Part shown: positions 3,944-32,000 of the stretch, piece after piece | Numbering within the stretch: position 1 is the first letter of the stretch | Layout: the number at the start of each line of letters is the position of its first letter | Assembly (NCBI RefSeq): GCF_018336915.1 | Contig: NZ_CP064924.1 | Span: 240,001 to 272,000 of the forward strand | Origin: Acaryochloris marina S15 | Lineage (GTDB): Bacteria > Cyanobacteriota > Cyanobacteriia > Thermosynechococcales > Thermosynechococcaceae | Reading direction: 5' to 3' | Length of the DNA: 32,000 nucleotides | Made by a program: the position numbers and the translations under genes | The notes under the pieces: model-generated | Seen by the model: the letters and a program-made list of their open reading frames with translations, nothing else | The model's database searches: none | What the model was told of the DNA's origin: nothing

Positions 3944-4048
3944 CAGATTTCTCCGTGAAACCCTGCGCCTTCAGGCCAGGGAGGGATAGGAGCGCGACTG
4001 CAAGGAGCAATAATGCAGCCTTACATTATTTGCACTAAAATGTGAGAT

Positions 4049-5161: not shown

Positions 5162-5268
5162 GACCGGATGGAACATATGAGTCTTGATGGCAACTGCTAT
5201 GAAACAGAAAACTTTCTGGGTGACCGGGGAATCCCCTTCCTTTAGGTGGGGGAGTAGTCAAAACTCTC
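5040..5268 (+). ncRNA. predicted omega-RNA (reRNA) of TnpB; extent guessed
   Basis: Established knowledge: TnpB guide RNAs are transcribed from the 3' end of tnpB through the right IS end. Seen in sequence: stable hairpins at 5226-5252 just inside the inferred right end. No covariance model could be run. Confidence 0.3.
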
Positions 5269-5272
5269 TCTC

Positions 5273-5824
5273 CTATACGCCAAAGAACATGAATGCTGCC
5301 ATCGTTAGAAAGGCGGCAAAGATCAAGATGGCGATCCAAGGCCGCAGCATCTCGTGATACCCCGTGCCGTTATGGTTATGCTGGAAAATAGCGTTGCCTC
5401 CATAGGCCACGGCAGTCACGAATACAAAGGCAACGATGGCCCCGATGATCACACAGGTCATCCCCGCGAAGTTGATGGACCCGACGGTGACTTGTCCCAG
5501 TAATTGTTTGATGGTGGAGGCTGCACCTTTAATGGGGCCAATCTCGACACAGGCCGCTTCGGTGATGGTGATGTTCTGGGCAAAGGCAGAGTTATGGATG
5601 AGGATGCTGAGAATAAAGGCCCAGGCACCTAGCAGATAATGCACTGGGGGTGACCCCGCTAATCGCTTCCACAGCAGTCCCGATAGCAGCATCAAAAACT
5701 GAATAATGCCTGCCCAAACAATGCCAGGTAAGCCCACCCCCATCCCGATGCTGACGAGGAAGAGTTGGCTTGACCACCAAGGAAAGCGATCAAGGCGGTG
5801 ATAACAGGTTCTAAGGAGTCTCAT
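5273..5824 (-). CDS. polytopic small membrane protein, possible TrbC/VirB2-like pilin precursor
   Basis: The ATG at 5824 has GAGG 8 nt upstream. A long hydrophobic leader ends ...IHNSAFA/QN. The ~100-aa remainder has two hydrophobic helices (MTCVIIGAIVAFVFVTAVAY and WIAILIFAAFLTMAAFMFF), which is the layout of T4SS pilins. The function call is inference only. Confidence 0.6.
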   Translation of the reverse strand: MRLLRTCYHRLDRFPWWSSQLFLVSIGMGVGLPGIVWAGIIQFLMLLSGLLWKRLAGSPPVHYLLGAWAFILSILIHNSAFAQNITITEAACVEIGPIKGAASTIKQLLGQVTVGSINFAGMTCVIIGAIVAFVFVTAVAYGGNAIFQHNHNGTGYHEMLRPWIAILIFAAFLTMAAFMFFGV

Positions 5825-5859
5825 GGCAATTGCCTCTGATGGGTCATTGGGAAAAGGTG

Positions 5860-7935
5860 TTATTGCTGGGCGTAATCAATCAAGGTCTGGAGCTGGTCAG
5901 GGGATACATTGGCTAGCTTTGCTGCGTCTTCAGAAGACTTCCCCCAACGCATCTGACGGATCATGCCGTTGACGCGCCAGTGCATTTCTGAGCGATAGCG
6001 ATATGTCTTGTTGCCTGACGCTCTAGCGACGTTTAGCCCCTTCAAAAGAGTCTGTGGAGTGATGCTACTATCGGACACGTTTCGTTTAGCCACGGGGACG
6101 GGCTTTGCCTTCGGTGTGAGACGAATGCGCCGCACAGGGGGACGTTTAACGGTCTTCGGCTTAGGAAGTGTCTTGACCTGGGGCTTCAAGGTCAAAGGTT
6201 GGCCTGATGCCACGGTTTGAGGGAAGCGAGTTCTCACAGGGGGCTGACCCTGGCGACCTGTGAGAACTCGCGATTGCTCAGGGGGTTGAGCAATGGGGGT
6301 GGGCGCTCCAATCCGAGTGATGGCAGTACTGGGGGCACTGTCAGACCGATTGATGGTTAACTCCATTGAGGAGCGGTTGCAGCCCACTAAATCTAGAATC
6401 AAGTTGGTCGATTTCACCTGGGCATTCGGCTTCCAGGTCAGGTAAATCTTTTGGGTCTGGGGTTGGGGCAGATCCAAGCTCAGGTCAAAGATGCCCCTAG
6501 TGCCCATATAGGCTTTAGAGACTCGGCACCCGCTGGAGCTGAGGTCAATCAGGTGACCGTGACCGGGAGCAATCTTAATCGTTTCTGCTGTAGCTGGGGA
6601 GATAAGCAGCCCCAACCAGGCCGCAATAATGGCGGCAATCGTCTTGTACATCGTGTTTGTCCTTGGCAAGTTTGTCTGCTGGGGAGGAGGGTTGCTATCA
6701 AAGACAGCCCCTCGTTGTGGTTGTTGGCTGGAGTCAGGACCAGCCCGTGATGGAAATCCTCGAATGCTTTGAGATATCGCAGCTAATGGTCTTTGGATAA
6801 ACTCGGTTACTGTTTGGCAGAATCCCAGATGTCTTCCCCTAGTCGCTCTAGGCTCTCCCAATCCACGGCATCGCTGATCCGCTGGGGGAGATTGATGCCC
6901 CGGTCGATCAGCAGGCCCGTCACTGCGACCCCCACAAAGAACCAAAAGAGATTTCTGAGCATGGGCAATAACTCCTTTGACGAATTCAATAGCTTTGGCA
7001 GACAGGGACTCTGGAGCGGGGGGAGTTTGGGAAAGATGTGGGGAAGATGAAAAATGCTGAATGTTGTTTTGATAAGAAATAGAAAGAGAAGCAGGCCAAG
7101 TGCTGAGATTGACTCGCTCTTGGCCTGCTTCTAGTGCTGTGGGTTGAGAGTAGTTGCTGAAACCTTGAGAAAACTGACCTTGGGCTACCTTCACGAACTG
7201 AGCCATGCCAACCCGGAACCACTGCTTGAGAAGATGGACGGGGATTTGATATTTCGGAGGTCGAGGGGCTTTAATTAGGACGAGATTGGTGTTGGTCTCG
7301 TCCTCAAGCTCATCACCAAAGTACTCATCATAATCGTCACCATCTGCATAAAATGATGCATCGTCAATCGTAAATTCATGCCATTCTGGGATTTCCTTGA
7401 ATGAACGGCCCCATCGCATCAAATCTTCGATATATTGCAGTTTCAGCTTTGCTTTTTGGGCAATCTCTTCCAAGCTGGCATCGGGAAACTCATTTTGAAG
7501 TCTGTATACCCTATCGAGATGAATCTGCTTTTTTTCAGGCAGTTTCAGTTGTCCAGGTCTGTTCTTATAGCAATATCTGCGGATGTATCCTCTAATCCAG
7601 CCTCTGGCATAGGTGGAGAACTTACACCCTTTAGTAGGATCGAATTTCCGAACGGCATGACGAATCCCCAGCATTCCTTCTTGCAGTAAATCTTGGCCAT
7701 CCTCAAAGGTTTGGGCATATTGATTGGCTAGTTTGGACACCAAACGAACATGACCAATCATCAGCCATGACAAAGAGGTTTCATGGCCTCGTTTAGCGTA
7801 TTGAATCAGCTCCAATTCCTTCTCTGGACTGGGGATGGGGAAGCGATTCAAAAGCTGGACAAGATATTCGGGTAAGCGGATGCCGTCCGAATAGGGACTG
7901 GCAATAGTAGCAATCGTCATGGGTCGATCCTCCAC
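5860..7935 (-). CDS. sigma-70 family protein (N-terminal ~180 aa) in a 691-codon open frame that probably contains more than one translational unit
   Basis: Region 2-like sequence is DLLQEGMLGIRHAVRKFDPTKGCKFSTYARGWIRGYI. An HTH-like stretch is SLEEIAQKAKLKLQYIEDL. The same frame contains an in-frame ATG at 6651 with AAGGA 8 nt upstream, followed by a signal peptide or TM helix MYKTIAAIIAAWLGLLISPATA/ET (nested candidate CDS 5860..6651). Confidence 0.55.
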   Translation of the reverse strand: MEDRPMTIATIASPYSDGIRLPEYLVQLLNRFPIPSPEKELELIQYAKRGHETSLSWLMIGHVRLVSKLANQYAQTFEDGQDLLQEGMLGIRHAVRKFDPTKGCKFSTYARGWIRGYIRRYCYKNRPGQLKLPEKKQIHLDRVYRLQNEFPDASLEEIAQKAKLKLQYIEDLMRWGRSFKEIPEWHEFTIDDASFYADGDDYDEYFGDELEDETNTNLVLIKAPRPPKYQIPVHLLKQWFRVGMAQFVKVAQGQFSQGFSNYSQPTALEAGQERVNLSTWPASLSISYQNNIQHFSSSPHLSQTPPAPESLSAKAIEFVKGVIAHAQKSLLVLCGGRSDGPADRPGHQSPPADQRCRGLGEPRATRGRHLGFCQTVTEFIQRPLAAISQSIRGFPSRAGPDSSQQPQRGAVFDSNPPPQQTNLPRTNTMYKTIAAIIAAWLGLLISPATAETIKIAPGHGHLIDLSSSGCRVSKAYMGTRGIFDLSLDLPQPQTQKIYLTWKPNAQVKSTNLILDLVGCNRSSMELTINRSDSAPSTAITRIGAPTPIAQPPEQSRVLTGRQGQPPVRTRFPQTVASGQPLTLKPQVKTLPKPKTVKRPPVRRIRLTPKAKPVPVAKRNVSDSSITPQTLLKGLNVARASGNKTYRYRSEMHWRVNGMIRQMRWGKSSEDAAKLANVSPDQLQTLIDYAQQ
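6807..6962 (-). CDS. small single-pass membrane protein (51 aa), out of frame inside the 691-codon ORF
   Basis: The ATG at 6962 has a canonical AAGGAG 9 nt upstream. The product MLRNLFWFFVGVAVTGLLIDRGINLPQRISDAVDWESLERLGEDIWDSAKQ has one TM helix plus an acidic tail. The long frame here reads as R/G/P-rich junk-like sequence (GGRSDGPADRPGHQSPPADQRCRGLGEPRATRGR). Confidence 0.45.
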   Translation of the reverse strand: MLRNLFWFFVGVAVTGLLIDRGINLPQRISDAVDWESLERLGEDIWDSAKQ

Positions 7936-7978
7936 AGGAGGGTGACTGGAATGAGTGAGATGAGTTGAGGTCTGATTC

Positions 7979-9217
7979 TTATAGGGCTGCTTTCAGCTTT
8001 TCCCAGGCAACGGGAAAGCGCTCGGGGAAAGACCTCAGAGCTTCTAATCCTTCCCGAGCAAAGTCCCAAGTTTGGGCTTCTTCACCAGCAACGCCATCGC
8101 CACTCCAAAAGTCTTGGCCTACTACGTTGAATACCTGAAATGAGTGAGCATTATAGAAATTGGCAGCTTTAGACTGGGCGAATTCAATTAAGACAAATTC
8201 ATCCCACCGGGCACAGGCATTTCTAGATTTCGCCCGCCATTCTCCATCGATCGGCCAAGGGGGCTTTTCGTCCATGCCACTCCAATACAGATTGTCATCT
8301 GCAATCCTTACGTCGATTTGGATCTGGGCAGCTATCCGAGTCGCAGGGTCTGGGGCAAGATCGTTCCACCATTGGCAGATAAGTTTGATGGCAGGGTGTT
8401 TTTCAGAGTCGTTGAAGTAGGTGGCCTGTTCAGGAACGATGAGTTCACGCGCTAGTCTGATGGCGTTATAGAAATCTGCTGCCAGAATCTCGCAACAGGC
8501 ATTGTTATGGTGTTCTTCTATATAAGTAGTGAACTGAGTAGCGGGTTCAATATCCCGCTCTAATGCCATGTCCTCAATCTGATCGCAAATCAGGTCTGAC
8601 CAAGCACAAGAATTCAGGTTTAGGGTCTGAAAATAAGCAAAACCAAAACCACATGATTCGTCCAATACATAGGGCTTGAATGATTCGTCACCCTTCGTAA
8701 AGCTCTCTTCTATATGATCTAGATCTAAAAAGCTGACAGCCCGTGCATTCGGATCATAAAAAGTGCTGGTCTGATCCATTGAAAAGACATGACCTTGCTG
8801 GGTGAGGTTGAAGTCCAGCTTAAATTGATGGTGAATAGTCATCAGACTGTGTTCACAATCAACCGGAAGCTGGATAAGCCATTCCAGTCTCAACCACTGA
8901 GGAAGGGTATCCATTTCCAGGGGAATAGACCAACCCATCTTTCTATCTGAAGTGCCAGCAACACACATAGTAATATTCGGATAGGGGCGTCGGATCACCA
9001 CTTTCTCTGGTAAGACGGAAAGGGCTTCCTTAGATCCGGGTAGGAATATTTCTACCTTGCTTAACCTGATGCTCTCCAAGCCAATATTATGAAAAGGATT
9101 GAAGAGCCTGGGGAGTATATGAAAGATAGGAGTATCACTATCCTTGTGCGAGATGGGCGTTCCATCTGCATTAACTAAAAGATGAGTATCGCCAATTTCT
9201 GCCATCGCAAATTGCAT
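7979..9217 (-). CDS. hypothetical protein (412 aa), no recognisable motif
   Basis: A long ORF co-directional with the transfer-like operon, with a 43-nt gap to the next gene and protein-like composition. I cannot assign a family. Confidence 0.65.
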   Translation of the reverse strand: MQFAMAEIGDTHLLVNADGTPISHKDSDTPIFHILPRLFNPFHNIGLESIRLSKVEIFLPGSKEALSVLPEKVVIRRPYPNITMCVAGTSDRKMGWSIPLEMDTLPQWLRLEWLIQLPVDCEHSLMTIHHQFKLDFNLTQQGHVFSMDQTSTFYDPNARAVSFLDLDHIEESFTKGDESFKPYVLDESCGFGFAYFQTLNLNSCAWSDLICDQIEDMALERDIEPATQFTTYIEEHHNNACCEILAADFYNAIRLARELIVPEQATYFNDSEKHPAIKLICQWWNDLAPDPATRIAAQIQIDVRIADDNLYWSGMDEKPPWPIDGEWRAKSRNACARWDEFVLIEFAQSKAANFYNAHSFQVFNVVGQDFWSGDGVAGEEAQTWDFAREGLEALRSFPERFPVAWEKLKAAL

Positions 9218-9305
9218 TCTTCAACTCCTGTGTGGCGTGAATGTTGAAAGATTGATTTAATCAAACTATTAGAGAAGAGGGCAGGTGCCCAAAATTCAGA
9301 GGCTA

Positions 9306-9737
9306 CTACGCAGCAGTAGTAGGCAAAGTTTGGGGTTGAAATAGTCTCTGTACTGGTGGCTTTTCAAGCAATTTACGTACAATTTGTTCTGCACCTTCTT
9401 TAGAAAGGTGGTGGTGTAGCATCTGAGCCTGAATATAGGGGCCTTGAAATAGACATCTGAAACGATCATCAGGGTGATATGCACTCTGCTTTAATCTAGA
9501 AGCAATATGTTCATCAATCTCTCGGCTTAACTGAGGATCATCACAACCAAGCTGATACAGGGCCTCATAGGTATCCAATGTTGTGATATCAGGTATAAAG
9601 CTCTGAGCGATGACCGCTAATTGTAGATAAATATCTAGGCAGTTCTCGTTAATCCCTGGAGAACTGGACTGGACATAGAGTTGAGTCCCTTGATCAGTAC
9701 CAAGGGGCTTACCCAATTCAGGGTTTGTGGATACCAT
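9306..9737 (-). CDS. hypothetical protein (143 aa), first gene of the minus-strand operon
   Basis: The ORF has plausible composition and is followed by co-directional genes. It lies downstream of a 520-bp AT-rich intergenic region. Confidence 0.55.
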   Translation of the reverse strand: MVSTNPELGKPLGTDQGTQLYVQSSSPGINENCLDIYLQLAVIAQSFIPDITTLDTYEALYQLGCDDPQLSREIDEHIASRLKQSAYHPDDRFRCLFQGPYIQAQMLHHHLSKEGAEQIVRKLLEKPPVQRLFQPQTLPTTAA

Positions 9738-9901
9738 AGTGATAACTCCTGTCAGGGAGCGAGAATCACGGCTTGATCGATGTGGTAATTGGACAGGCCG
9801 TGGTTTGCTATTTTAAGTGAAATATTTCTGTGCAATACAGAAACGAACAGGAATCCTGTCAGAGAATCCTGGTAAGAATCGATTTTTTAAAAACAGACAG
9901 T

Positions 9902-9929
9902 GCAAAGGCTAGACCTTTGCTGTTTTTTG
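9902..9929 (+). terminator. intrinsic-terminator-like hairpin (GCAAAGG-CTAGA-CCTTTGC followed by TGTTTTTTG)
   Basis: A perfect 7-bp stem, a 5-nt loop and a T-run are seen directly. No annotated plus-strand gene ends here, so it may terminate a small RNA or act weakly for the minus-strand rep gene. Confidence 0.35.
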
Positions 9930-10265
9930 TGGGCAATAGTGGAAATAGAAAACTAAAAAATTTGGACGGGTGAATAATCACTTATTTCACTTGGGGTCAC
10001 CATAACGGCAAACACGGATTCACGTCAAAATAATTGTTGCAATCTGTAAAGACAGCTCGAAAGCAGCTACACCGACAACACTAGTTCAATCACCCTATTT
10101 CTTTCAATACCTAGCTTTCAGCCATTATTCACCCAAGGTTCAAACGACTTAAATTTGTGTAACGGAAGGTGCCGTAACCGACTTTTAGCTGATATGGATA
10201 CTGTTGCTCTTGCCCAAGATTTGTTCAAAGGCCAAATCGTTTTTCTTAAGAAAAAAACCAGAATT

Positions 10266-12362
10266 TTAGTCACCTCGTTCACTTTCGATATCCATAGAGA
10301 TTCCAAACATTCTATTCATCGATTTCAAGGTGAACACGGCAGCTATTTCTGCATAGGGTTGCCACTGTTCTTCTGTCAGTACCCAATACTCCCCATCTCT
10401 CCAGGAGTAGTCAGTGACTAGCCTGCATCGTTGAGCTGCTCGATACCAAGTATCAAATTCTTGTTGTTCACTTTGACGTACAATCCTTTCCTGTGTGGGT
10501 TCTTGAGTCTCAAGCAGTTTCAAGGGAAGCTGTTCTAAGTTCAGGTTTTGTGGGGATGGTTCTGGGACCAAACTCACAGGTTCAACTGGGGATTGCCTTC
10601 TTTGTTTCTTCCTCTGCTGGCGCAGCTGTACCACTTCCTGTTGTCGTCGCTGTTGCTGCTTGGCTTTGCCGATTTTGTTTTGCAAACCCGGTGGCAAAGA
10701 GAGTTTCAACTGATCCCAATTTTGAATGGGAACGACCTTAGAATTTCCCCCCAAACCCCCCTGATCTGGGACTTCGGAATCTGTAAGCGCCACTTTCGCC
10801 ACCCTTTGGCCTTTGAGGGCCAGGGTGACGGTGGCTTGGATCTTCATCGTTATCATTACAAACCCTACATTTATATAGAGTTGTAAAAGATCCTTTAATA
10901 TCAGTAGTTCCAGCTTTCGCTGGTTTATAAGGTGATGATTGTTTGACCCTTGTTGTGTAATTTCCCCTTCCTGCATGGGTTCTGGGGATTTCTGAGGAGT
11001 TTCTTCAACTAGATGATGTGGATGCCATAATTCCTTGTTTGACCGTCTGTATAAGGTTTTCTGGCTACAGTGGGCTAGTTTTGAGATGGCTTGGGCACGA
11101 GCAGTAATTCCAGGGGGGAATTTATCGACTCGCTTCAGTTCTAAGACTGCGTTCTTGATCCGGGTCTGGGCAGCTTCTCGTTTGCTTTGGTGGTACCCGA
11201 AGTCTGCTGGGGCTTCTTGCTTATCGTGGTATTTGGCTTCTCTACATGGGGCTGTGCCGGTGGGCCAGTAATACCGCATGGCCCAGATCGCTACTTCATG
11301 ACTTCTTCTATCTATCTCATGCTGGTGGCGGCAATGCTCATAGAAGCCGGGGGTGTTCTGGGCGGTTTGGCATACGTATTCTGCGATTTGTTCTGCAGAG
11401 TCCATGCCCATAAATACGCGAGCTTCGCAGGCGAGGATCTTGAGTTTCTCGTTGGTTTGGCCTGGGCCTGTCCAGCCTTGGGTTTTCTCTTCATGGATCC
11501 GCTCTTGCCAGGTGGCAAGGGAGCTGGCATGGCCTGATTTACGGACTTTGAAGTTCTGTTGTGCATCTGAGATCGCATGATGGAGACGCCCCATGTCCTG
11601 GCCATCGGCGCATAGCTCGAAGGCGTCAAGCCAATGTTCCAGGGACCAGGGTAGAGGATTTAGATCGGCATCGAGGGGATGGAAACCACTTCCAGGCTGC
11701 ATGGGGAGTCGGAAGGCGGCAAAGAGACTAAATCCTTTGCCTTTGGGTACGTAGCGTTTGGGGTTGGGGTAGAGTTCGCACTGCCCCCCATAGAACTTGA
11801 TGCCAATGGCTTCTAGGTTGAGCTTGATACAGTTGCTCAGCCAAAAGCTGCTGACGGTTTCAGGGAGGGGGAGGTATAGATGGAGTCCACTACTGTGGCT
11901 ACTTTGGCAAAGGAGTGAGCGGCAAATACCAATGTCTTCTAGGGCATGGCGTATCTGAGGTAGCCACTGGGGATCGCTCGATGAGTGATAGCGACTGTCT
12001 TTGTCGATGTCGAGGACGAGCCAACGGGTTTGGGCACTGGGCCTAACTCCGATCAGGCACTCAGGGTCTTGGTGGTGACTCCACATCTCCACGGGGGAGA
12101 GGGGGAATTTTTTGATAGTTGCCCAATCGACTGGATCTCCTGGCTCTGGGGCCGAGGCAAAGATCCAGTCCCAACCGTTGGGGAAAAGGGTAGCCAAATG
12201 CTTACCCACTGGATCAGCTGGTAAAGGGTCTTGTGTGCGTCGATGAGGTACACGAGATCTATCCTCGTGGTCATAAAATGCGGATTCCGCGTTCACGATG
12301 ATCTCCCTATGAATTGTCCAGATAGGGAGGTCACTGTAAATGGCCCAAAAACTTGCCAACAC
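10266..12362 (-). CDS. plasmid replication protein with archaeo-eukaryotic primase / prim-pol-like motifs
   Basis: The DxD-type motif is RWLVLDIDKD, the SGxH-type motif is SSGLHLYLPLP, and a later acidic strand is GGQCELYPNP. A Q/R/K-rich low-complexity linker (QQQRRQQEVVQLRQQRKKQRRQ) precedes a small C-terminal domain. The start faces the iteron array 217 bp away. Confidence 0.6.
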   Translation of the reverse strand: MLASFWAIYSDLPIWTIHREIIVNAESAFYDHEDRSRVPHRRTQDPLPADPVGKHLATLFPNGWDWIFASAPEPGDPVDWATIKKFPLSPVEMWSHHQDPECLIGVRPSAQTRWLVLDIDKDSRYHSSSDPQWLPQIRHALEDIGICRSLLCQSSHSSGLHLYLPLPETVSSFWLSNCIKLNLEAIGIKFYGGQCELYPNPKRYVPKGKGFSLFAAFRLPMQPGSGFHPLDADLNPLPWSLEHWLDAFELCADGQDMGRLHHAISDAQQNFKVRKSGHASSLATWQERIHEEKTQGWTGPGQTNEKLKILACEARVFMGMDSAEQIAEYVCQTAQNTPGFYEHCRHQHEIDRRSHEVAIWAMRYYWPTGTAPCREAKYHDKQEAPADFGYHQSKREAAQTRIKNAVLELKRVDKFPPGITARAQAISKLAHCSQKTLYRRSNKELWHPHHLVEETPQKSPEPMQEGEITQQGSNNHHLINQRKLELLILKDLLQLYINVGFVMITMKIQATVTLALKGQRVAKVALTDSEVPDQGGLGGNSKVVPIQNWDQLKLSLPPGLQNKIGKAKQQQRRQQEVVQLRQQRKKQRRQSPVEPVSLVPEPSPQNLNLEQLPLKLLETQEPTQERIVRQSEQQEFDTWYRAAQRCRLVTDYSWRDGEYWVLTEEQWQPYAEIAAVFTLKSMNRMFGISMDIESERGD

Positions 12363-12369
12363 AAGCTTT

Positions 12370-12391
12370 AGTGCTTTAAAATGTAAGCACT
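12370..12391. promoter_or_regulatory. inverted repeat AGTGCTT-N8-AAGCACT just upstream of the rep start (candidate operator)
   Basis: Perfect 7-bp arms sit at 12370-12376 and 12385-12391, extendable imperfectly to 12363-12399. The repeat lies 8 nt from the rep start codon. Confidence 0.35.
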
Positions 12392-12578
12392 ACTAAGCTC
12401 GGAAACTAAAGACTGTCGTCAAACAATTTCTTCGGTTTCCATCCCTATCAAATTGATATGCCTTACCCCCTCTCTGCCAAGTGGGGGTTTGTCATTTTAT
12501 GGGTCCATATTCTTATCCTCATAACTTTGAAGGGAGAGTAACATTATCAAAGTGAGTAAACAATAGGTGTTTTTGTCA

Positions 12579-24155: not shown

Positions 24156-26531
24156 TTAAAGCTGGACCAGCACATAATTTGCCCAGTAGTAGGGATGGGC
24201 ATACTCTGATTTTAATAGCTTCAATTGCGCTTGTCTCAGTGCTTCATTCATGGGTTTCTGATTTTTGACAGCTGCATAAAACTCTTGAGACACTAGCACT
24301 GATGCAGCCGCATCTGCAGACCACAAAGAGGCAACGGTATTATTCGCCCCGGATTGTGCAGAAAGGCCCGCTAAACCTAATAACGATCTCGGATCACCTT
24401 GGGCACTGTGACAAGCACTGAGGAAGAGTAGATCTAGTCCTCCACCACTCCCCGCTTCCAATACACCAGAAATATCTTTCACATTCAAAGGTCGGTCCCA
24501 TGCAAGTAGGAACGTTTGAGTAGGGTCAGAGCTAAATTGCCCGTGAGTAGACAGGTGGAGGATTTTTGAAGTGGGCTTTTCTACGTTTTTGAGGATGTTT
24601 TGATAGGTGAAATCTTTGTTTAGAATCAACTTGGCATCAGGGAAAGTTGCTTGAATTACTCCCACTTCTTCAGCGACTTCAGGCAAGGGGGCTAACGCTG
24701 TTTTCTGCAAGCTCGGACTATTTGTAGATACCCCTCCCACCACAGCTCCAGGTTGACGAGAGGGGGGAATAGACTCTCTGACATAGCCATTTGATAGTGC
24801 GACTGGGTTACGCTCAATCAGATAACGCTTGCCATCATGGAGTAACGCCATTGGGATATTTTGCAGAGGACCACTCAGGTGGAACTTAATGGGGGTTTCT
24901 TCTAGGATTAGATTTTTTGCCACTGCAGGCTCAAGGATCTGCTGATACAGCGACTGCAAGAGGGGAAGGTATTGCGACTGACGCATGTCATAGAAATTAT
25001 CCCCTTGCAGAGCAACTGTTAGTTCGTCAATCGTCGTCTTGAGTTGATTAGGGTCTACGGTGTAATGGGTATCGCCAACAATGACGGTGGTTTGGTCCCC
25101 AAGATCTAAGATTTGCACGACAACTTGTTGAGAATCTTGAGCTTGTGCCAGGGGCACTAAGTTAGTTTCCCCGCACTTGAGATAGTTCTCTAATTCAGCG
25201 AGTCGCAGACTTTGATTGACTTGAGACACTTGCGTCAAGTCAGGGTTATCCGTTTCAAGCAACAGTCCCATATATTGCTGGTAAACGGGTTCCACTTGTT
25301 CTTTAAAGGAGAATTGCAGATCGGAGGTGACGGGCAATAGGTTCCAACGCACATGCTCAAGGGCCGAAATCGCGCTTGTGTAGGAGGTGATCGCCTGCTG
25401 GGTTTGCCCCTGATCCTCATACTGCTGGGCTAGGGCACTGCGCCATTGGTAAAGCCCATCCCAGGCTTGAATGGACTGGGCGAACTGGGCGGCCAGCTCA
25501 TAGGAGCGCATGGAGAGATCGCTCTGACCACTCTGCTGATAGAGCCGACCCAGTTGACCATAGACGAAGGACAAGGCTCGATAGTTATCCAGCTCGTTCG
25601 CTAGGTTTTGAGCGGTCTGGGCCTGTTCAAAGGCGAGGACCAGGGGATGTTTCCCTGAGAGTTTCCCCGATTGTTTCGCGACAATTTTGGATATTTTCAG
25701 ATGGGCATACACCCGTGAGATGGGTGAGAGTGCATTGAGGTCAGATTGCAATAAGGTTTGTAGGATTTGCCCCCGTTTGGACTGCAGAGAATCCCGTAAT
25801 TCAACCATCTCAAAGATGCCTGGGCCATCTGAAGCTATCCACTGATCAAGATCATCATAGAGGCTGAGCCATCCGAGTCGGGCTTGGCTGATGTCTAAGG
25901 CTTCATAGTCCGCAAAGGCTTGTTTGGCGGTTTTCTCTGCGGCTTTAACTTGGGTCGCTTGGACCAGGGCCTCTCCCGAGATTTGAAATTTCTGAATTGC
26001 TGACCTTACCTGAATAGTCCGGGTATTGGCGAGGGTCTGTTGACTCGCTAGCTGTTGGGCCTGATTGCCTTGTTGTTTTGCATTTGCGATCGCAAGGGTG
26101 AGAACCGTTTCGGATCGTTCTAGGTATCCTAGTTCCTGAAATATCTTGCCTAAGTTTTGTAGGGCAATCAGATCCGTCGTATCAAAGGTTCGATCCACAA
26201 GAGGAGTGGTAGGAGCGTCTGATTGGCAATACCTCTCAATCGCTAGGGCAAGGCTTACTTCACGACAGGCATTGAGGTATTGCCCGAGCTGCTGATGGGC
26301 TAGGGCTTTGTTGATTCTCGACCCTCTAATGCCTTCCTCGTTGTTAATTTCCTGGTAAAACGATTGGGCTTTTTCAAAGGAGGTAAAGGCACCACTCGGA
26401 TTCCCCTGATCCAACTGTTGATTCCCCTGGACGGTGAGGGCATCGGCTTTGTCTAAGGGGGTGAGATCCGCTGCTTTTGCACTTGGGATGAGCAGCAGGG
26501 ATAGGAGTAGGATTTTGGCAATGTGCTTCAA
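24156..26531 (-). CDS. exported CHAT-domain (caspase-like) protease with N-terminal TPR-like repeats
   Basis: The signal peptide is MKHIAKILLLSLLLIPSAKA/AD. The CHAT His-Cys dyad context is ILHLSTHGQF and LLFLSACHSA. The C-terminal YYWANYVLV is typical of CHAT. The TTG start sits 2 nt after the tpsB stop. Confidence 0.9.
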   Translation of the reverse strand: MKHIAKILLLSLLLIPSAKAADLTPLDKADALTVQGNQQLDQGNPSGAFTSFEKAQSFYQEINNEEGIRGSRINKALAHQQLGQYLNACREVSLALAIERYCQSDAPTTPLVDRTFDTTDLIALQNLGKIFQELGYLERSETVLTLAIANAKQQGNQAQQLASQQTLANTRTIQVRSAIQKFQISGEALVQATQVKAAEKTAKQAFADYEALDISQARLGWLSLYDDLDQWIASDGPGIFEMVELRDSLQSKRGQILQTLLQSDLNALSPISRVYAHLKISKIVAKQSGKLSGKHPLVLAFEQAQTAQNLANELDNYRALSFVYGQLGRLYQQSGQSDLSMRSYELAAQFAQSIQAWDGLYQWRSALAQQYEDQGQTQQAITSYTSAISALEHVRWNLLPVTSDLQFSFKEQVEPVYQQYMGLLLETDNPDLTQVSQVNQSLRLAELENYLKCGETNLVPLAQAQDSQQVVVQILDLGDQTTVIVGDTHYTVDPNQLKTTIDELTVALQGDNFYDMRQSQYLPLLQSLYQQILEPAVAKNLILEETPIKFHLSGPLQNIPMALLHDGKRYLIERNPVALSNGYVRESIPPSRQPGAVVGGVSTNSPSLQKTALAPLPEVAEEVGVIQATFPDAKLILNKDFTYQNILKNVEKPTSKILHLSTHGQFSSDPTQTFLLAWDRPLNVKDISGVLEAGSGGGLDLLFLSACHSAQGDPRSLLGLAGLSAQSGANNTVASLWSADAAASVLVSQEFYAAVKNQKPMNEALRQAQLKLLKSEYAHPYYWANYVLVQL

Positions 26532-26533
26532 CG

Positions 26534-28231
26534 TTAAAGCCTCCCAGTGATGGATAGATATAGCCCCTCTTCTTGGAGAGTAGGCCGTCGATCTGGCTGA
26601 TTGAGTAAGGGGATACCGAAGTCAATACGGGCACTGATTCTTTCTGAGAGGTCATAGCGCAGACCTAATCCCACGGACGCTAAAGTTTGGCTGGGGTTCG
26701 GTAAGAAACGCTGTCCCTGATTAAAGCCATGCCCCACATCGATGAAAGGGACGAGTTGGAGGGTGCCTGCGGAGCCTGAGAATAGGGGAACTCGCAGCTC
26801 TGAGGAGAAGAACAAACCACTATCACGGGTGAGGCCATCCTGTCGATAGCCGCGCACGGTGGAGACTCCCCCCAGGCTGAATTGCTCAGAAGGAATCACG
26901 GGTCCATCTGCGAACTGCACTCCACCGCGATTGACCCAGGTGAATTTAGAAAACTGATGTGCCCAGAGTGCTTGCCCCCTCCAGGCAAAGAAGGTGCCAT
27001 CACCAAATAAATCGGCGTTGCGGGTGCTGATGGGCAGGCCAATATTGAATTGAGATCTGAGAATGATGGAGTCGTTGCGGTCTCGATTGTTCCAATCTTG
27101 GGTGAGGCGTAGCACGGTGGAGTTCGTTTGGCCCGTTCCATCTGCGCCTTCTGTAAGGGGGAAGGGAATTCCCAATAGACTTTCATTGCTCTCCAGGCGG
27201 GAGAGGGAAACACCAAGGGCAAATTCTTGGATCTGATTGCCACTGATTTTTCTCAGGATGGGTTGGCGATAGGAGGCTTCTAACTGGAAGGCGCTGGTGT
27301 TGAGGTCAATGAGATCAAAGGGTTCTTCGACAATATCGTTATCGCCATAGGTGAAACTGAGGCCCACGGTGCCGTTTTGGATGTTGACTGGGGTGGCATA
27401 GTTGACACTCACCAAGTTGCTGCCGTCTGTGTTGCGAAAGGTGAGATCAACACTATCGCCCAGGCCCGTGACGTTGCGGTAGGTGGCCGTGGCTCCTCTT
27501 TCAAAGGTGCCGACAGAGGGGGCACGATTGTTATTGGCAAAAACGTCTAAGCTAAAGGGTTTATGGGGGTTAACATCCAAGGTGAGGGTGGCTTGGCCGA
27601 CCACTGCACTGGGCGTAAGCTGAGCATTGATGCCCCGTATCAGCGGATCAACCTGCAGCCATCTCAGGGCATCTTGAAGGTCTTGCTCCCGGAGTACACC
27701 CTCCGTCGCGGGTTCAATCCTGTCTCGAATATAAGATTCAAGACGATCTGCTCCCTGAATGACGATATCGGTTACTTGCCCCTCTATGATTTCAATGGTG
27801 ATTACTGCATTAGAGGGGTCGATCTCTTGGCCGAGGGTAATATTAGCCCCGGAGTTGATGTACCCCTCTTTGGCATAGCGTTGGGTAATTTTTTCTTCTA
27901 CGGTCAGTAGGTCTGTGATCGTCTGGGGTTGGCCGATAAATTCTGCGACTTCAGCCTGCAATTGCTCATTCGAGAAAACGGTATTCCCTTCAAAGACGAA
28001 CTGCTCGGGGGTAACGACTAAGTTGCGATCTAGTCGTGGATCAATCCCAGAGGGTAACTGAAAGGGATTGATTTCAAGGGTCGGTGGAAGTGGAGTGGTT
28101 GGAGCATCTGGGGGGGACTCCTCGGGGAGGGGGAGGGTGTCTGGGAGGATCGGAGCCTCTTGTGCCACGAGCGGTTTAAGGCTGCAGCAACTGATACCCA
28201 ATCCGAGCAGGATGGATAATGGTTTATTCAT
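26534..28231 (-). CDS. ShlB/FhaC/HecB-family two-partner-secretion outer-membrane transporter (TpsB)
   Basis: POTRA-type sequence reads FVFEGNTVFSNEQLQAEVAEFIGQPQTITDLLTVEEKITQRYAKEGYINS, followed by a long beta-barrel with alternating pattern and a terminal aromatic-rich strand. I prefer the ATG at 28231 (MNKPLSILLGLGISCCSLKPLVAQ signal peptide, no overlap with tpsA) to the track's TTG at 28276. Confidence 0.9.
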   Translation of the reverse strand: MNKPLSILLGLGISCCSLKPLVAQEAPILPDTLPLPEESPPDAPTTPLPPTLEINPFQLPSGIDPRLDRNLVVTPEQFVFEGNTVFSNEQLQAEVAEFIGQPQTITDLLTVEEKITQRYAKEGYINSGANITLGQEIDPSNAVITIEIIEGQVTDIVIQGADRLESYIRDRIEPATEGVLREQDLQDALRWLQVDPLIRGINAQLTPSAVVGQATLTLDVNPHKPFSLDVFANNNRAPSVGTFERGATATYRNVTGLGDSVDLTFRNTDGSNLVSVNYATPVNIQNGTVGLSFTYGDNDIVEEPFDLIDLNTSAFQLEASYRQPILRKISGNQIQEFALGVSLSRLESNESLLGIPFPLTEGADGTGQTNSTVLRLTQDWNNRDRNDSIILRSQFNIGLPISTRNADLFGDGTFFAWRGQALWAHQFSKFTWVNRGGVQFADGPVIPSEQFSLGGVSTVRGYRQDGLTRDSGLFFSSELRVPLFSGSAGTLQLVPFIDVGHGFNQGQRFLPNPSQTLASVGLGLRYDLSERISARIDFGIPLLNQPDRRPTLQEEGLYLSITGRL

Positions 28232-28242
28232 TATTGGTGGTG

Positions 28243-30762
28243 TTAACCAGCTTTTGCGGTTGGATCCGGTTGGCAAGCCTGGAGTGTGGATGCGATCTCG
28301 GAAGCGTACTGATCTGCTTCTCGTGGATCGTTTACGAATGTCACGGTGCCGTTATCATTCGCCTTCCATCCAACCACTCGTTTAAGTGGCTTGTGTTCCC
28401 CCGTTTCCGGATCAGCATATGTCAATCGCCGTTGATCATACCTCGCTTTGGCGACTTGCATCCAGCGGCTTTCCGAACTTGGAAGAGTTTCAGGGTTGAT
28501 GGGTTGTCCCGCCGAGCCAACCCGATAGTAGGCTAGAGTATCGCGGTAAGTGGGGCCACAGGAAGCGTATAGCTCAGGGGGTTCAGATTGAATATTCAGG
28601 TTAGGATCACGGTTAAAGTCAGTAATTTCAGCTTCCACATCGACACTGCCATCAAACTGAGTACCAAGTTGGGAAGTAGCTGTGATGGTACTGTCTGGGG
28701 ATAGGAAGAGGCCAAGGGTGTCAATAGAAATATTACCTCCCGTTGATTGTGCTGAATTTGCTGCAATTACAGATTCTTTTAGAATTATCAGATCAGAAGT
28801 AACATTAATATTCCCACCAGTACCAGTCCCAAAAGAGTTAGCTGCGACTCTACTCAAATCATCCAAAAGCAGCACTTTTGTATTGAGATTTATATTGCCC
28901 CCATCATCATCAATTGCAAATGACTCAATAGCCCCTCTGCTGAGCTGGACATTATTTGCATTAATAAATAAATCCCCTGTTCTTCCAAAACCCTCATTAC
29001 TCGTTGATATAACCGCTCCTTCCTGAATCTTTAGGCTGTTTGTTGTTATCTGGGTAACTCCCAAATTACCCGAAGGGAATGGTGGAAGACCAAACCTAAT
29101 CAGTTCATTAGTAGGTGACACATTAGCGAAAGTTCCAATTCCAGATGGATCTACACCGCCATCACTATTGGTTCTAATCCCAGACAGTAAAATGGAATCA
29201 TTGGCGTTGACAATAAGGTTTCCACTATCACCTGATGCAAGGGCAGTTGAAATTAAAAATCCTCCATCAAAAATCGAAAGTTTTGAAGTTTTTATATTGA
29301 CATCAGCAGCTCGACCGCTTCTAAATGAAGATGAAAATATAGAGCTTGGAAGTCCTGAAAACTCAGAATTACCATTAAGTATAATTTTTTTACTAACGAG
29401 TATATTTACGGACTCACTTGGGGATGAAGAGAACGAAATAGATTGGATTGTACCATGCCTATTTAAAGATAATTGAGCTGCCTTAATATTAACTTTCCCA
29501 GCAGTCGCAGTTCCATTACTACTAGTCAAAATTGTAGAGAAAGATGCTATCGGATCTGGTAGAACGTCTCCTTCAATACGTATTGAATCAGAAATATCTA
29601 CATCAATATTTCCACCTTTTCCAGCAAACGCTGCATTGTTCAAAATAACACCTGCATTCAGAAGCGTTAAATTTTTAGCCTTGATGGATATATCTGGACC
29701 TTGACTAAAAACGCTAGAGCCAATAATACCTGATGTATTTCTCAGAGATGTAAGTCCGGGGGGTAAACTAGGTCTATTCTTGATTCCTATATGCTGAATA
29801 GCTTCCTTAAAGTTAAACTGTATTTTTCCACCACCAATACTTCCTTCGTTTTGAATTACTACAAAAGATCCACTTTCTAACGTTAGGTTCTTGCCCTCAA
29901 AACTAATAAAGCTACGAGATAAGTTATTTGGAAAACTACTAGCATCAACTAATGAAGAATTGCTAAGCCTGATGTCATTGAATTCTTTGACTAATGCATA
30001 GTCAACAGTATTTCCAGACTTAGATTGTTGAAACCCTTGAAATCCTACAACCCCTTCCTTGACACTTCCAACATTGATATTTCCTGATGGAGCTGTTATT
30101 ATTCCGCCGTCAAAAGAAACGCCATTACCCAAAACAACCACTTGCTGACCAGGATTTACCCTAATTCCAGAAGTACTTCTACCAGCTCCAATTCCAATAC
30201 TCGTAACGGGATCCACATTAAGTTGGTTACCATTACCTGTTAAAGCGATTTCACCAGACATACCATTGAACTTAACGAATTCTGGTTGCGTAGGTGATAA
30301 AAATGAGTTATTACCATTCTCACTATAAAACTCAAGCCCATCATCAAACTGGATACTTGTAGCTGTAGAAGAGAAAAATGATCCACCAATATTGAGTTGG
30401 ATTGAATTTCCAAAGAAGATGCCATTTGAATTGAGTATATAAAGATTAGCTGGATTTTGAGTCGCAATTAAGCCATCTAATACTGATACCCTGCCTCCAG
30501 TCACCCTTGCAAAAATATTTACAATAGACCTACCATTTTCAAACAAAACTTGTTGATTACTATTTATATTTAATTCTTTAAAACTATGAAACAAGTTATT
30601 ACTTGATTGTCTGCCACCATTAACTCGAATCAAGCTATTACTTTTCAATACTTGAGTATTTAATGATTGGTCAGGAGATACTTGAGCCAATACAAATGGC
30701 TCAAGTATCAAGCTATCAAGACTTGCAATACTAAGTAGGATTAGGAATGACAGATTTTTCAT
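28243..30762 (-). CDS. TpsA exoprotein with filamentous-hemagglutinin N-terminal (TPS) domain, beta-helix body and a distinct conserved C-terminal module
   Basis: TPS domain motifs are NNLFHSFKELNI, VNIFARVTGGRVSVLDG, ANLYILNSNGIFFG and GGSFFSST. Repeated GGNI/GNL beta-helix rungs follow. The last ~120 aa are encoded by GC-richer DNA that is duplicated at the right window edge. Confidence 0.9.
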   Translation of the reverse strand: MKNLSFLILLSIASLDSLILEPFVLAQVSPDQSLNTQVLKSNSLIRVNGGRQSSNNLFHSFKELNINSNQQVLFENGRSIVNIFARVTGGRVSVLDGLIATQNPANLYILNSNGIFFGNSIQLNIGGSFFSSTATSIQFDDGLEFYSENGNNSFLSPTQPEFVKFNGMSGEIALTGNGNQLNVDPVTSIGIGAGRSTSGIRVNPGQQVVVLGNGVSFDGGIITAPSGNINVGSVKEGVVGFQGFQQSKSGNTVDYALVKEFNDIRLSNSSLVDASSFPNNLSRSFISFEGKNLTLESGSFVVIQNEGSIGGGKIQFNFKEAIQHIGIKNRPSLPPGLTSLRNTSGIIGSSVFSQGPDISIKAKNLTLLNAGVILNNAAFAGKGGNIDVDISDSIRIEGDVLPDPIASFSTILTSSNGTATAGKVNIKAAQLSLNRHGTIQSISFSSSPSESVNILVSKKIILNGNSEFSGLPSSIFSSSFRSGRAADVNIKTSKLSIFDGGFLISTALASGDSGNLIVNANDSILLSGIRTNSDGGVDPSGIGTFANVSPTNELIRFGLPPFPSGNLGVTQITTNSLKIQEGAVISTSNEGFGRTGDLFINANNVQLSRGAIESFAIDDDGGNINLNTKVLLLDDLSRVAANSFGTGTGGNINVTSDLIILKESVIAANSAQSTGGNISIDTLGLFLSPDSTITATSQLGTQFDGSVDVEAEITDFNRDPNLNIQSEPPELYASCGPTYRDTLAYYRVGSAGQPINPETLPSSESRWMQVAKARYDQRRLTYADPETGEHKPLKRVVGWKANDNGTVTFVNDPREADQYASEIASTLQACQPDPTAKAG
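28244..28459. repeat. direct repeat copy A (C-terminal module coding sequence)
   Basis: It aligns base-for-base with 31785-32000 at an offset of 3541 bp. I count 6 mismatches over the ~215 aligned bases. The alignment is cut by the window edge, so the true length is unknown. Confidence 0.9.
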
Positions 30763-31594
30763 TTATTAAGTTATTCACAAAATCATCAAATAATTCAGCA
30801 ACTAAAGTTCCATTATCTGTAGGCAATTGGTGATTTGCCTCTGCAATAACTTTTAATTGAGCGTTCGGGATTTTATCCTCATATGCTTGGCAATACCAAA
30901 AAGGAATAGTGAGATCCTTCTCAGCTGCAATAATCAATGTTGCTGATGAAATATCTTGTATACTTCTATCAATTAGCTCAGTGCTCATTTCCCCTTTAAA
31001 TATACGACGAAACCAAGCCTTCATAATAGGTTCATAAAGCAACTGATATCGATAATGTTTAATAGTATTTACAGTCTCTTTCTTCTTGAAAATAGAAGAA
31101 AAGACAGAGACTAAGTTAAGAACCCAATCAATTATAGGAGTTTCCCATGACAAGGGTTTGAGTATTTGGTACTTGTCTAATTCTTCTGAGATTCCAGCAG
31201 GGGCAGCCAAGACAAGTCCTAATACTGATTCTTTATATTTTAAAGCATAGCTAGCAGCAATCCAGCCTCCAAGAGAATGACCAATAATATAGAAAGAGTC
31301 AATACATAAAGCCTTCATGAAGTGATGTATATATGAGACTTGTGACTCAATCTTGTAATCAATCTCTGGCTTAGATGATTCACCAAACCCTAGAAGATCT
31401 AAACTAATACATCGATACTTATTCTTTAATATCTGAGTTACAGCTCTCCAACAGCTTGATTCAGATAAGAAACCATGTAGAAGCAAAACAACAGGCCCTC
31501 TTCCTTCATCCTGGTATGCAGCTTTCACTATTTGTTTCTTATTCGATTCTAAGCATAATTCAAATGACTTTTGATTTTTAGTGAATAGGGCCAT
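30731..31594 (-). CDS. alpha/beta-fold hydrolase (cytoplasmic, Ser-Asp-His triad)
   Basis: The oxyanion region is VVLLLHGF and the nucleophile elbow is IIGHSLGGW. The candidate Asp is in AAEKDLTIP and the candidate His is in EANHQLP. There is no signal peptide. Its 3' end overlaps the tpsA start by 32 nt. Confidence 0.85.
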   Translation of the reverse strand: MALFTKNQKSFELCLESNKKQIVKAAYQDEGRGPVVLLLHGFLSESSCWRAVTQILKNKYRCISLDLLGFGESSKPEIDYKIESQVSYIHHFMKALCIDSFYIIGHSLGGWIAASYALKYKESVLGLVLAAPAGISEELDKYQILKPLSWETPIIDWVLNLVSVFSSIFKKKETVNTIKHYRYQLLYEPIMKAWFRRIFKGEMSTELIDRSIQDISSATLIIAAEKDLTIPFWYCQAYEDKIPNAQLKVIAEANHQLPTDNGTLVAELFDDFVNNLINEKSVIPNPT

Positions 31595-31783
31595 TCCGTT
31601 TCATGCCTTACGTCTTGCAAATCATTTAAAGAGTGGGTTCTTCAGCTCTCACATGTGAATATTTGAATCAACTCATGTATGAATGCCGTAGCCTCAAAAT
31701 CAAACTCACTTCGGATAAAGTAGCTTTCACACCTCTTTTAACCCAAATGCAGCATGATTCAATATTATTCATACGGATGAGAG

Positions 31784-32000
31784 TCAACCAGCTTTTGCGG
31801 TTGGATCCGGTTGGCAAGCCTGAAGTGTGGATGCGATTTCGGAAGCGTATTGATCTGCTTCTCGTGGATCGTTTACGAATGTCACGGTGCCGTTATCATT
31901 CGTCTTCCATCCCACCACTCGTTTAAGTGGCTTGTGTTCCCCCGTTTTCGGATCAGCATATGTCAATCGCCGTTGATCATACCTCGCTTTGGCGACTTGC
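31784..32000 (-). CDS. 3' end of a gene whose product carries the same C-terminal module as the TpsA at 28243..30762 (5' part lies outside the window)
   Basis: The frame is open to the window edge: ...QVAKARYDQRRLTYADPKTGEHKPLKRVVGWKTNDNGTVTFVNDPREADQYASEIASTLQACQPDPTAKAG*. This differs at only two residues from the TpsA tail. The track's start at 31966 is a TTG inside the frame. Confidence 0.75.
   Translation of the reverse strand, partial: QVAKARYDQRRLTYADPKTGEHKPLKRVVGWKTNDNGTVTFVNDPREADQYASEIASTLQACQPDPTAKAG
31785..32000. repeat. direct repeat copy B (C-terminal module coding sequence)
   Basis: See copy A. The orientation is the same, and similarity begins right at the stop codon (TAA versus TGA). 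Confidence 0.9.

Follow-up and report, generated by a model that had tools for sequence, protein, structure and literature searches.

The tail of the two-partner secretion (TPS) exoprotein CdrA lies in the periplasm, where LapG cuts it and thereby releases CdrA under the control of cyclic di-GMP (c-di-GMP), and a small disulfide-containing domain in the periplasm, described as a small globular loop region, keeps the exoproteins HMW1 and HxuA locked in their TpsB transporters; the HMW1 operon further encodes a cytoplasmic accessory enzyme, HMW1C (PMC5422565). SphB1, a subtilisin autotransporter encoded outside the fha locus, takes part in the release of mature filamentous haemagglutinin (FHA) from the cell surface, and the FhaB prodomain remains intracellular, going by the title of a study in the reference list of the same review (Noel et al. 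2012, in PMC5422565). That review mentions cyanobacteria once and CHAT never (PMC5422565), and in a 2012 survey of polymorphic toxins HINT is the sole processing protease given for type V systems, while cyanobacteria are absent from the type V entries (PMC3482391). Here, we analyse a window of 32,000 nt from Acaryochloris marina (the whole stretch of DNA, to which all coordinates refer unless a locus is named), whose plasmid-borne locus encodes a predicted two-partner (type Vb) secretion system, presumably with TpsB-dependent secretion, and an exported CHAT protein as its dedicated partner. This identity, put forward in a preliminary description of the sequence, is borne out by domains, leaders, synteny and a TPS-CHAT fusion. 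The same description knew of no characterised TPS system with a CHAT protease, and our literature searches likewise turned up no paper that joins CHAT to two-partner secretion, nor an experimental study of a cyanobacterial TPS system. The parts belong to known families; their combination, its conservation and the modular build of TpsA are not described in the literature searched. Our tentatively preferred explanation, to which we give somewhat less than an even chance, is that CHAT is a periplasmic release or maturation protease for a tethered TpsA.

The unit comprises four minus-strand genes (24156-31594), and an open reading frame (ORF) check confirmed every coordinate first given for it, overlap and gaps included. 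An alpha/beta hydrolase gene (30731-31594, 287 aa, GC 0.35) overlaps the start of tpsA (28243-30762, 839 aa) by 32 nt. A gap of 11 nt separates the tpsA TAA from the tpsB ATG at 28231 on the same strand (tpsB 26534-28231, stop 26534-26536, 565 aa), and one of 2 nt separates the tpsB TAA from the TTG of the CHAT gene at 26531 (24156-26531, 791 aa). A Shine-Dalgarno sequence, GGGAGG, lies 8 nt upstream of this TTG, and a database protein 100% identical to the window CHAT (P0001) has the same start residue. As for membership in type Vb, TpsA combines a signal-like hydrophobic leader (residues 4-15) with a TPS domain (Pfam TPS, residues 26-276, E 3e-39; TIGR01901, E 1e-17) that contains the motifs NLFHSF (56-61) and LNSNG (110-114). 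TpsB has a strongly hydrophobic, signal-like N-terminus and matches POTRA_2 (E 2e-10), ShlB (E 1e-19) and Omp85 (E 2e-17), so that its map reads signal peptide, ShlB-type POTRA domain (76-151) and Omp85/ShlB barrel (212-549), with the loop-6 motif VRGY at residues 459-462. Finally, tpsA and tpsB are coupled, in an arrangement shared by nine other loci. TpsA itself falls into a variable part (residues 1-680; 28723-30762, GC 0.37), made up of a signal peptide (~1-27), the TPS domain and beta-helix repeats (~277-680), and a C-terminal module (residues ~681-839 plus stop; 28243-28722, GC 0.52) that starts with TLGLFLSPD at residue 682.

Is this combination peculiar to one plasmid? Scanning one genome per species for the CHAT family yielded at least 587 relatives; the best 80 loci, all of them cyanobacterial, were kept and searched with the window proteins, and linkage was counted among the 58 with at least 6 kb upstream. 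A TPS-domain gene lies within 10 kb of CHAT in 49 of these 58 loci and upstream of it on the same strand in 41. The co-occurrence across cyanobacteria on which the preliminary description had staked the pairing is hence found in several genera: the linkage reaches Nostoc, Calothrix, Leptolyngbya, Coleofasciculus and many others, at ~30% CHAT identity and with differing flanks. The exact tpsA-tpsB-CHAT order with a tpsB/CHAT gap of 0-11 nt is present in four Nostoc loci (L005, L006, L007, L021), and the order also in five Acaryochloris-type loci. In one protein (P0097), solitary in its genome and without cluster context, a TPS domain is fused to a CHAT domain whose His and Cys are intact. A hydrophobic N-terminal leader is present in 85 of 93 full-length CHAT homologs, most of the others being borderline or apparently wrong start calls. 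Because of the linkage counts, the fusion and the leaders, the CHAT-TPS partnership and CHAT export are properties of the family, not an accident of this plasmid.

The closest public replicon, and the sole relative in the plasmid collection, is plasmid pMB02 of Acaryochloris sp. 'Moss Beach' (L003), and A. marina NIES-2412 has three paralogous copies of the whole module (L085, L087, L088). A pair of ParB-like genes adjoins each copy, a hint that the module belongs to the backbone of several Acaryochloris plasmids. With parB genes beside it on several replicons or contigs, the paralogs could be duplicated blocks, and the adjacency of CHAT and TPS genes inherited plasmid synteny devoid of a functional link; the linkage in so many genera, at low CHAT identity and with different flanks, and the existence of the fusion bring this reading close to refutation, and we hold it to be highly improbable.

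Two types of cluster can be told apart. In type A, to which the window belongs, tpsB lies between tpsA and CHAT. In type B, common to many Nostocales and Oscillatoriales, one to three tandem tpsA genes are followed by CHAT, DUF928 and a CHASE2 sensor, as exemplified by L040 (1-17263), which has three TpsAs, CHAT, DUF928, a CHASE2 sensor and a hybrid histidine kinase; there are 32 other such loci. Extra, shorter CHAT-domain genes are located near the main cluster in L007 (524-2113), L037 (18801-19757) and L059 (19838-20440), that in L007 encoding a protein of 529 aa without a long TPR part.

With its TPS-CHAT fusion, P0097 demonstrates that TpsB can take a CHAT domain as passenger, and polymorphic toxins include caspase-fold C-terminal toxin domains (PMC3482391). 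Both facts are in keeping with CHAT being cargo or an effector at the surface or in the medium, perhaps riding on TpsA or leaving via TpsB, and degrading proteins of competitors, the host or the matrix. The window CHAT, however, lacks a TPS domain and has a plain Sec leader only, the size of its TPR solenoid hints at a specific partner protein, an immunity-like gene is not apparent, and the fusion itself stands outside any cluster, which makes such a role decidedly unlikely in our view.

What kind of protein is CHAT? Its sequence identifies it as an exported TPR-CHAT cysteine protease, the activity being predicted. A signal peptide (residues 1-20, ending in …PSAKA before AD) is followed by a helical TPR solenoid (~25-450) and the CHAT part (~458-790), with matches to TPR repeats and to the CHAT family (PF12770, residues 523-789, E 6e-48). 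His663 (nt 24543-24545) and Cys707 (nt 24411-24413) are invariant in an alignment (A1) of 20 diverse homologs of 25-68% identity, so that both the signal peptide and the His-Cys protease domain noticed at the outset stand. An AlphaFold2 model (pLDDT 84, pTM 0.80) likewise shows a helical solenoid (25-450) and an alpha/beta domain (458-790), and Foldseek matches it with probability 1.00 each to Csx29 (8eey_B, E 4e-14), DdvA (E 8e-11) and separase (E 4e-9). Differences in domain orientation keep the TM-scores of these matches low, at 0.28-0.47, and sequence identity to Csx29 and separase is 10-14%. Dyad and TPR-plus-CHAT fold together place the protein among the clan CD peptidases of the CHAT type. 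It is not of the DdvA type: Pfam and NCBIfam reveal no anti-sigma domain, the protein starts with its 20-residue leader, and no extracytoplasmic function (ECF) sigma gene is adjacent. Nor does it look like part of a Craspase: it carries a signal peptide, its neighbours are TpsB, a NACHT protein, a kinase and a STAND NTPase, and no CRISPR/cas gene came up when the larger ORFs of the window were scanned with Pfam, a dedicated array search not having been run. CHAT and TPR are the only Pfam families in the protein, which sets it apart from the LapG fold. The preliminary description had invoked SphB1 as an analogue, which turns out to be a poor choice: SphB1 is a surface subtilisin autotransporter encoded outside fha, a subtilisin or autotransporter domain is missing from the TPR-CHAT fold of our protein, and LapG/CdrA together with the HMW1 and HxuA anchors fit better (PMC5422565).

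Two further cysteines of CHAT, Cys89 and Cys102 (window nt ~26226-26267), sit in the TPR region at a distance of 13 residues (NACREVS...YCQSD), and a Cys at or near these positions is kept in the five closest homologs of alignment A1 (P0012-P0024); they could form a disulfide in the exported protein.

According to the authors of the DdvA study, knowledge of TPR-CHAT proteins is scant, and substrates of TPR-CHAT or caspase-fold proteins are established, in the literature consulted, for Craspase and separase only. Could CHAT act without cutting anything? TPR domains are protein-binding scaffolds and the CHAT gene is translationally coupled right behind tpsB, both of which would suit a periplasmic chaperone or scaffold that keeps TpsA, or its C-terminal module, competent for TpsB, with the dyad kept for another reason. 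The invariance of His and Cys across homologs as diverse as those aligned favours catalysis over such a role, and we regard the chaperone as quite improbable.

We return to release or maturation of TpsA by CHAT, for which the C-terminal module of TpsA is the candidate point of contact. No Pfam family matches this module. A word-indexed search with it gave three matches, and it took an exhaustive profile search to recover 2,039 cluster representatives; in almost every full-length match listed, the module forms the C-terminus of a protein of ~800-900 aa. TpsA as a family is large, at least 2,362 proteins matching at E <= 1e-20 when 8,000 candidates were scored. Among TpsAs adjacent to CHAT, the consensus of the module reads D.s.GL.eLP..vD...Ia.gC....s.FiiTGRGGLP.nP..L....W.D, then a variable stretch, ivEAqGWv.n..G.V.LvA and a final Cys; in the window TpsA the motif GW..G.V.FV occupies residues 798-810. 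The only two cysteines of this TpsA, C735 and C830, both fall inside the module. The same holds more widely: 57 of 66 TpsA ORFs neighbouring CHAT have exactly two mature cysteines, with median distances of 100 and 5 residues to the C-terminus, and in 110 of 114 database TpsA homologs all mature cysteines lie within the last 200 residues. This family-wide terminal pattern therefore points to a C-terminal module that forms a disulfide-closed terminal domain.

The module also has a history of its own. Near position 28700, GC drops from ~0.51 on its side to ~0.36 on that of the N-terminal part, and a comparable split (~0.36 vs ~0.49) is seen in all hydrolase-tpsA loci compared (L084, L085, L086). 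The window is homologous to pMB02 as far as nt 28719, which coincides with the codon for the first residue of TLGLFLSPD. Between L085 and L086, identity is 73% in the TPS domain and 79% in the beta-helical middle, as against 32% in the C-terminal module, 39% in TpsB and 36% in CHAT; between L085 and L087, the picture is reversed (40% and 34% vs 84%, 79% and 93%). In every informative pair the junction of inheritance maps to window residues ~670-690 of TpsA. Hydrolase, TPS domain and beta-helix thus share one history, and the last ~160 residues of TpsA, TpsB and CHAT another, with the junction at ~682. Across 41 loci, CHAT identity correlates more closely with that of the C-terminal module (Spearman 0.70) than with that of the TPS domain (0.43), and the gap was zero or negative in 0.1% of 1,000 locus subsamples. 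The early suggestion that CHAT contacts a conserved C-terminal module of TpsA gains support from this, the module being inherited with TpsB and CHAT and not with the rest of TpsA.

A copy of the module's end occurs a second time in the window. A direct repeat of 218 nt at 31783-32000, which runs off the window end, copies the tpsA 3' end at 28242-28459 with 97% identity. This upstream copy, which is also 97% identical to the tpsA 3' end of pMB02, retains the stop codon, an 11-nt spacer of equal length and a vestigial tpsB start (ATGAATAA), and diverges thereafter. Consequently, a second minus-strand tpsA ends just upstream of the hydrolase gene. Logan contigs obtained by exact-protein look-ups (3.4 kb and 4.4 kb) break at the repeat. 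Unequal crossing-over, or single-crossover integration via the shared C-terminal module, would be expected to leave such an arrangement, which suggests a duplication or an integration event. On pMB02, the hydrolase is absent, the N-terminal part of TpsA is a different one, and a cytochrome P450 gene lies upstream. The pMB02 locus (L003 12001-21400) has decayed: CHAT is split by an insertion with a DUF6431 gene and a gene of no Pfam family, tpsB is interrupted at its 5' end by a second insertion of ~1.3 kb, and the reading frame of tpsA is shifted.

How might the parts work together? In the mechanism we propose, each functional step of which we infer, TpsA would cross the inner membrane via Sec and be threaded through TpsB. 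Its last ~100 residues, closed by the C735-C830 disulfide, would fold in the periplasm and, in this form, could not pass the TpsB pore, so that the beta-helix would be displayed on the surface. TPR-CHAT, also exported by Sec, would recognise the C-terminal module by its TPR solenoid, and its His663/Cys707 site would cut near the module, whereby TpsA would be matured or released.

Several points weigh against this explanation. Cleavage by CHAT, its substrate and its periplasmic location are all deduced, and characterised TPR-CHAT proteases are regulated signalling switches, not maturases. TpsB lies within 10 kb of CHAT in only 13 of the 58 loci. Inside type B, CHAT tracks the C-terminal module (0.23) no better than the TPS domain (0.21), such that the co-variation stems from type A loci and the A/B split; we have accordingly rejected it as a family-wide signal. 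The module is, besides, the part of tpsA physically closest to tpsB and CHAT, and plain linkage could yield a shared history. Its AlphaFold2 model is weak (pLDDT 70, pTM 0.40), and Foldseek found no structural match for it in the PDB below E 0.1. The likeness to anchors of the HMW1 and HxuA type rests on the Cys pair, the structure model being poor, and the HMW1 loop is reportedly much shorter than the ~95 residues between C735 and C830. Lastly, the decay of the pMB02 locus through insertion sequence (IS) elements and frameshifts implies that it is dispensable in culture.

The hydrolase is a member of Abhydrolase_1 (Pfam, E 6e-29) with a nucleophile elbow, GHSLGG, at residues 105-110; EKD (225-227) and NH (254-255), located in the window sequence alone, are candidates for the remainder of a Ser-Asp-His triad. 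It has no hydrophobic leader and is expected to be cytoplasmic. Its nearest solved relatives in a PDB sequence search are meta-cleavage-product hydrolases and esterases, and NCBIfam matches all stayed below the family cut-offs, leaving generic alpha/beta hydrolase relatives only. Including the window, the gene directly precedes tpsA in four loci, overlapping it by 4-32 nt in L084, L085 and L086, and the four-gene order recurs in these three other loci at 47-72% TpsA identity. The coupling to tpsA described earlier is thus real, and confined to one subclade; among the best 80 of the at least 587 CHAT relatives' loci, no hydrolase adjoins tpsA. A role as modifier or chaperone of the exoprotein did not fare as well, with co-inheritance with the N-terminal part of TpsA as the extent of its support. 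The hydrolase moves together with that part between very different TpsB/CHAT chassis, which is real evidence, drawn from sequence comparison, that the two form a unit. We also considered that the low-GC block (28723-31780) might be a recent foreign insertion with an unrelated hydrolase and rejected this, as coupling and GC split recur in L084, L085 and L086; the cassette is therefore old and mobile.

Other enzymes take the place upstream of tpsA elsewhere in type A, namely a P450 (L087 4381-5712, and pMB02), an LCM-family methyltransferase (L007 5188-6009) and a rubrerythrin-like protein (L005 2437-3129; L006 4525-5217), these genes being of variable identity. Like the N-terminal part of TpsA, the Acaryochloris P450 and hydrolase genes are low in GC. 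Together, this would fit a fixed chassis of C-terminal module, TpsB and CHAT, onto which an exchangeable cassette of TPS domain, beta-helix and upstream cytoplasmic enzyme recombines at residue ~682. A specific pairing of enzyme and passenger as a general rule was rejected: it applies to the hydrolase group only, P450-linked and LCM-linked TpsAs being no closer mutually than to the rest.

The preliminary description had regarded the system as four genes. It is larger, given the second tpsA 3' end upstream and three plus-strand genes convergent with the operon. The first encodes a STAND NTPase (16668-18017, 449 aa) with NB-ARC, NACHT and nSTAND1 matches, whose orthologs additionally bear an N-terminal HTH_VMAP-M9. 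The second (18022-19776, 584 aa) encodes a transmembrane Ser/Thr kinase with a kinase domain (109-305), a transmembrane helix (338-356) and a TPR domain (371-535), the latter predicted to be periplasmic since it follows the helix. We take kinase and STAND NTPase to resemble the AfsK/AfsR signalling pair of Streptomyces. The third (19822-20700, 292 aa) encodes an exported protein with a signal peptide (…NPAKA before EP), an fn3-like middle and a C-terminal TPR, the fn3 and TPR signals being weak. This protein is a probable distant relative of DUF928 (PF06051): it has no Pfam hit even at E 5, and hhalign aligns it to that family over 129 columns with 77% probability and E 2e-5. DUF928 came up in the literature searches in an unrelated context only. 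Every type A locus with enough flank has genes for all three, the exported protein being of ~300 aa, near its CHAT gene, and in most loci they are convergent with it; the trio is present in Acaryochloris (L085, L087, L088), a metagenome contig (L086), Nostoc (L005, L006, L007, L021), Leptolyngbya (L004), a metagenome-assembled genome of Synechococcales (L008) and Coleofasciculus (L022). We suspect that the DUF928-like protein, the kinase and the STAND NTPase, or the CHASE2 sensor elsewhere, sense a signal and would control expression or the protease, which would make for a putative regulatory link to the operon.

These neighbours bear on another reading of CHAT, as a signal-regulated switch akin to DdvA or Craspase, which would cut not TpsA but a signalling component such as the DUF928-like protein, the TPR domain of the kinase or, in type B, CHASE2, with TpsA as surface sensor or regulated output. 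It can point to the trio beside CHAT in all eight type A loci with enough flank (8/8), to DUF928 (33/56) and CHASE2 (27/56) near CHAT in loci with at least 4 kb downstream, to the alignment of the exported protein with DUF928, and to DdvA, the closest periplasmic TPR-CHAT of known structure, being a signalling protein. On the other hand, TPS genes accompany CHAT in a larger share of loci than DUF928 or CHASE2 do, CHAT has its history in common with TpsB and the TpsA C-terminal module, and kinases by a tps operon may just control transcription, as BvgAS does for fhaB (PMC5422565). We consider a substrate among these neighbours unlikely; the switch would nevertheless be compatible with the release or maturation of TpsA that we prefer if TpsA cleavage itself were the signal.

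Between the exported-protein gene and CHAT, the window has a further plus-strand gene (20847-24134), encoding an NNH3-NACHT protein of 1,095 aa with a long pentapeptide/decapeptide array (ADLSS/ADLSR). It is absent from this position in L085, L087 and L088 and therefore looks like an insertion. The array lifts GC to 0.60 at 23000-24000 and harbours a 205-aa shadow ORF of APTSA repeats (23299-23916). Elsewhere, the minus strand of window positions 1-12400 holds large ORFs without a Pfam family (769-5176, 7979-9217, 10266-12362) and a 691-aa protein (5860-7935) whose sole match is Sigma70_r2. The first ~7 kb of the window are higher in GC (0.48-0.55).

What would it mean if CHAT did cut TpsA? 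The C-terminal module is a conserved, linked candidate substrate, which would make a periplasmic caspase-fold protease directly testable. Were the model true, it would amount to an independent route to regulated adhesin release, with components that have no relation to LapG and LapD. It would tie caspase-like proteolysis and STAND/kinase signalling, typical of cyanobacterial gene sets for conflict and multicellularity, to the cell surface, and the exchange of enzyme-plus-passenger cassettes on a fixed anchor/TpsB/CHAT chassis would be a new kind of exoprotein diversification. Taken to its full extent, the locus might represent an undescribed, cyanobacteria-wide envelope system, in which a periplasmic CHAT switch, wired to kinase and STAND NTPase or to CHASE2, cuts the anchored tail of a reverse-polymorphic exoprotein with swappable enzyme-passenger cassettes; if so, cleavage would set the surface protein free on cue, or else inform the cytoplasm of an event at the surface. 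We view this larger picture as doubtful in its entirety.

Compared to known systems, the TPR-plus-CHAT architecture with its His-Cys dyad and predicted periplasmic setting recalls DdvA from Myxococcus xanthus. DdvA, however, is an anti-sigma factor anchored in the membrane, has a zinc-binding domain on the cytoplasmic side and is proposed to cut itself, whereas the window CHAT would be soluble, with a cleavable leader, no anti-sigma part and no adjacent ECF sigma. Csx29 of the type III-E Craspase and separase are, as proposed for CHAT, caspase-fold proteases that act on specific substrates under regulation, and they contain a TPR or helical solenoid; in contrast to CHAT they are cytoplasmic or nuclear, and Csx29 requires Cas7-11 and RNA. 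In Bordetella, TpsA of the FhaB/FhaC system is matured by proteolysis near its C-terminal end, as would be the case here, though SphB1 has no homology to CHAT.

HMW1/HMW1B/HMW1C and HxuA of Haemophilus influenzae share with our proposal a C-terminal disulfide anchor in the periplasm, and HMW1C is likewise an operon-encoded cytoplasmic enzyme. Yet the Cys loop here spans ~95 residues within an unrelated module of ~160 aa, the place of the glycosyltransferase is taken by a putative accessory enzyme of another kind (hydrolase, P450, methyltransferase or rubrerythrin-like protein), and the HMW1 operon has no dedicated protease gene. CdrA/CdrB and LapG of Pseudomonas aeruginosa match the proposal in having a periplasmic TpsA tail, a periplasmic cysteine protease and inner-membrane signalling control. 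LapG is a transglutaminase-like cysteine protease that is not known to have a TPR solenoid or to be encoded in the cdrAB operon, and c-di-GMP acts on it through LapD; kinship in sequence with CHAT is not expected. CHAT, by comparison, belongs to clan CD, and its candidate control is by a Ser/Thr kinase, a STAND NTPase or CHASE2 and not by c-di-GMP, so that the likeness is one at the level of mechanism only. The swappable N-terminal cassettes, finally, would be the mirror image of contact-dependent growth inhibition (CDI) toxins, where it is the C-termini that are exchanged.

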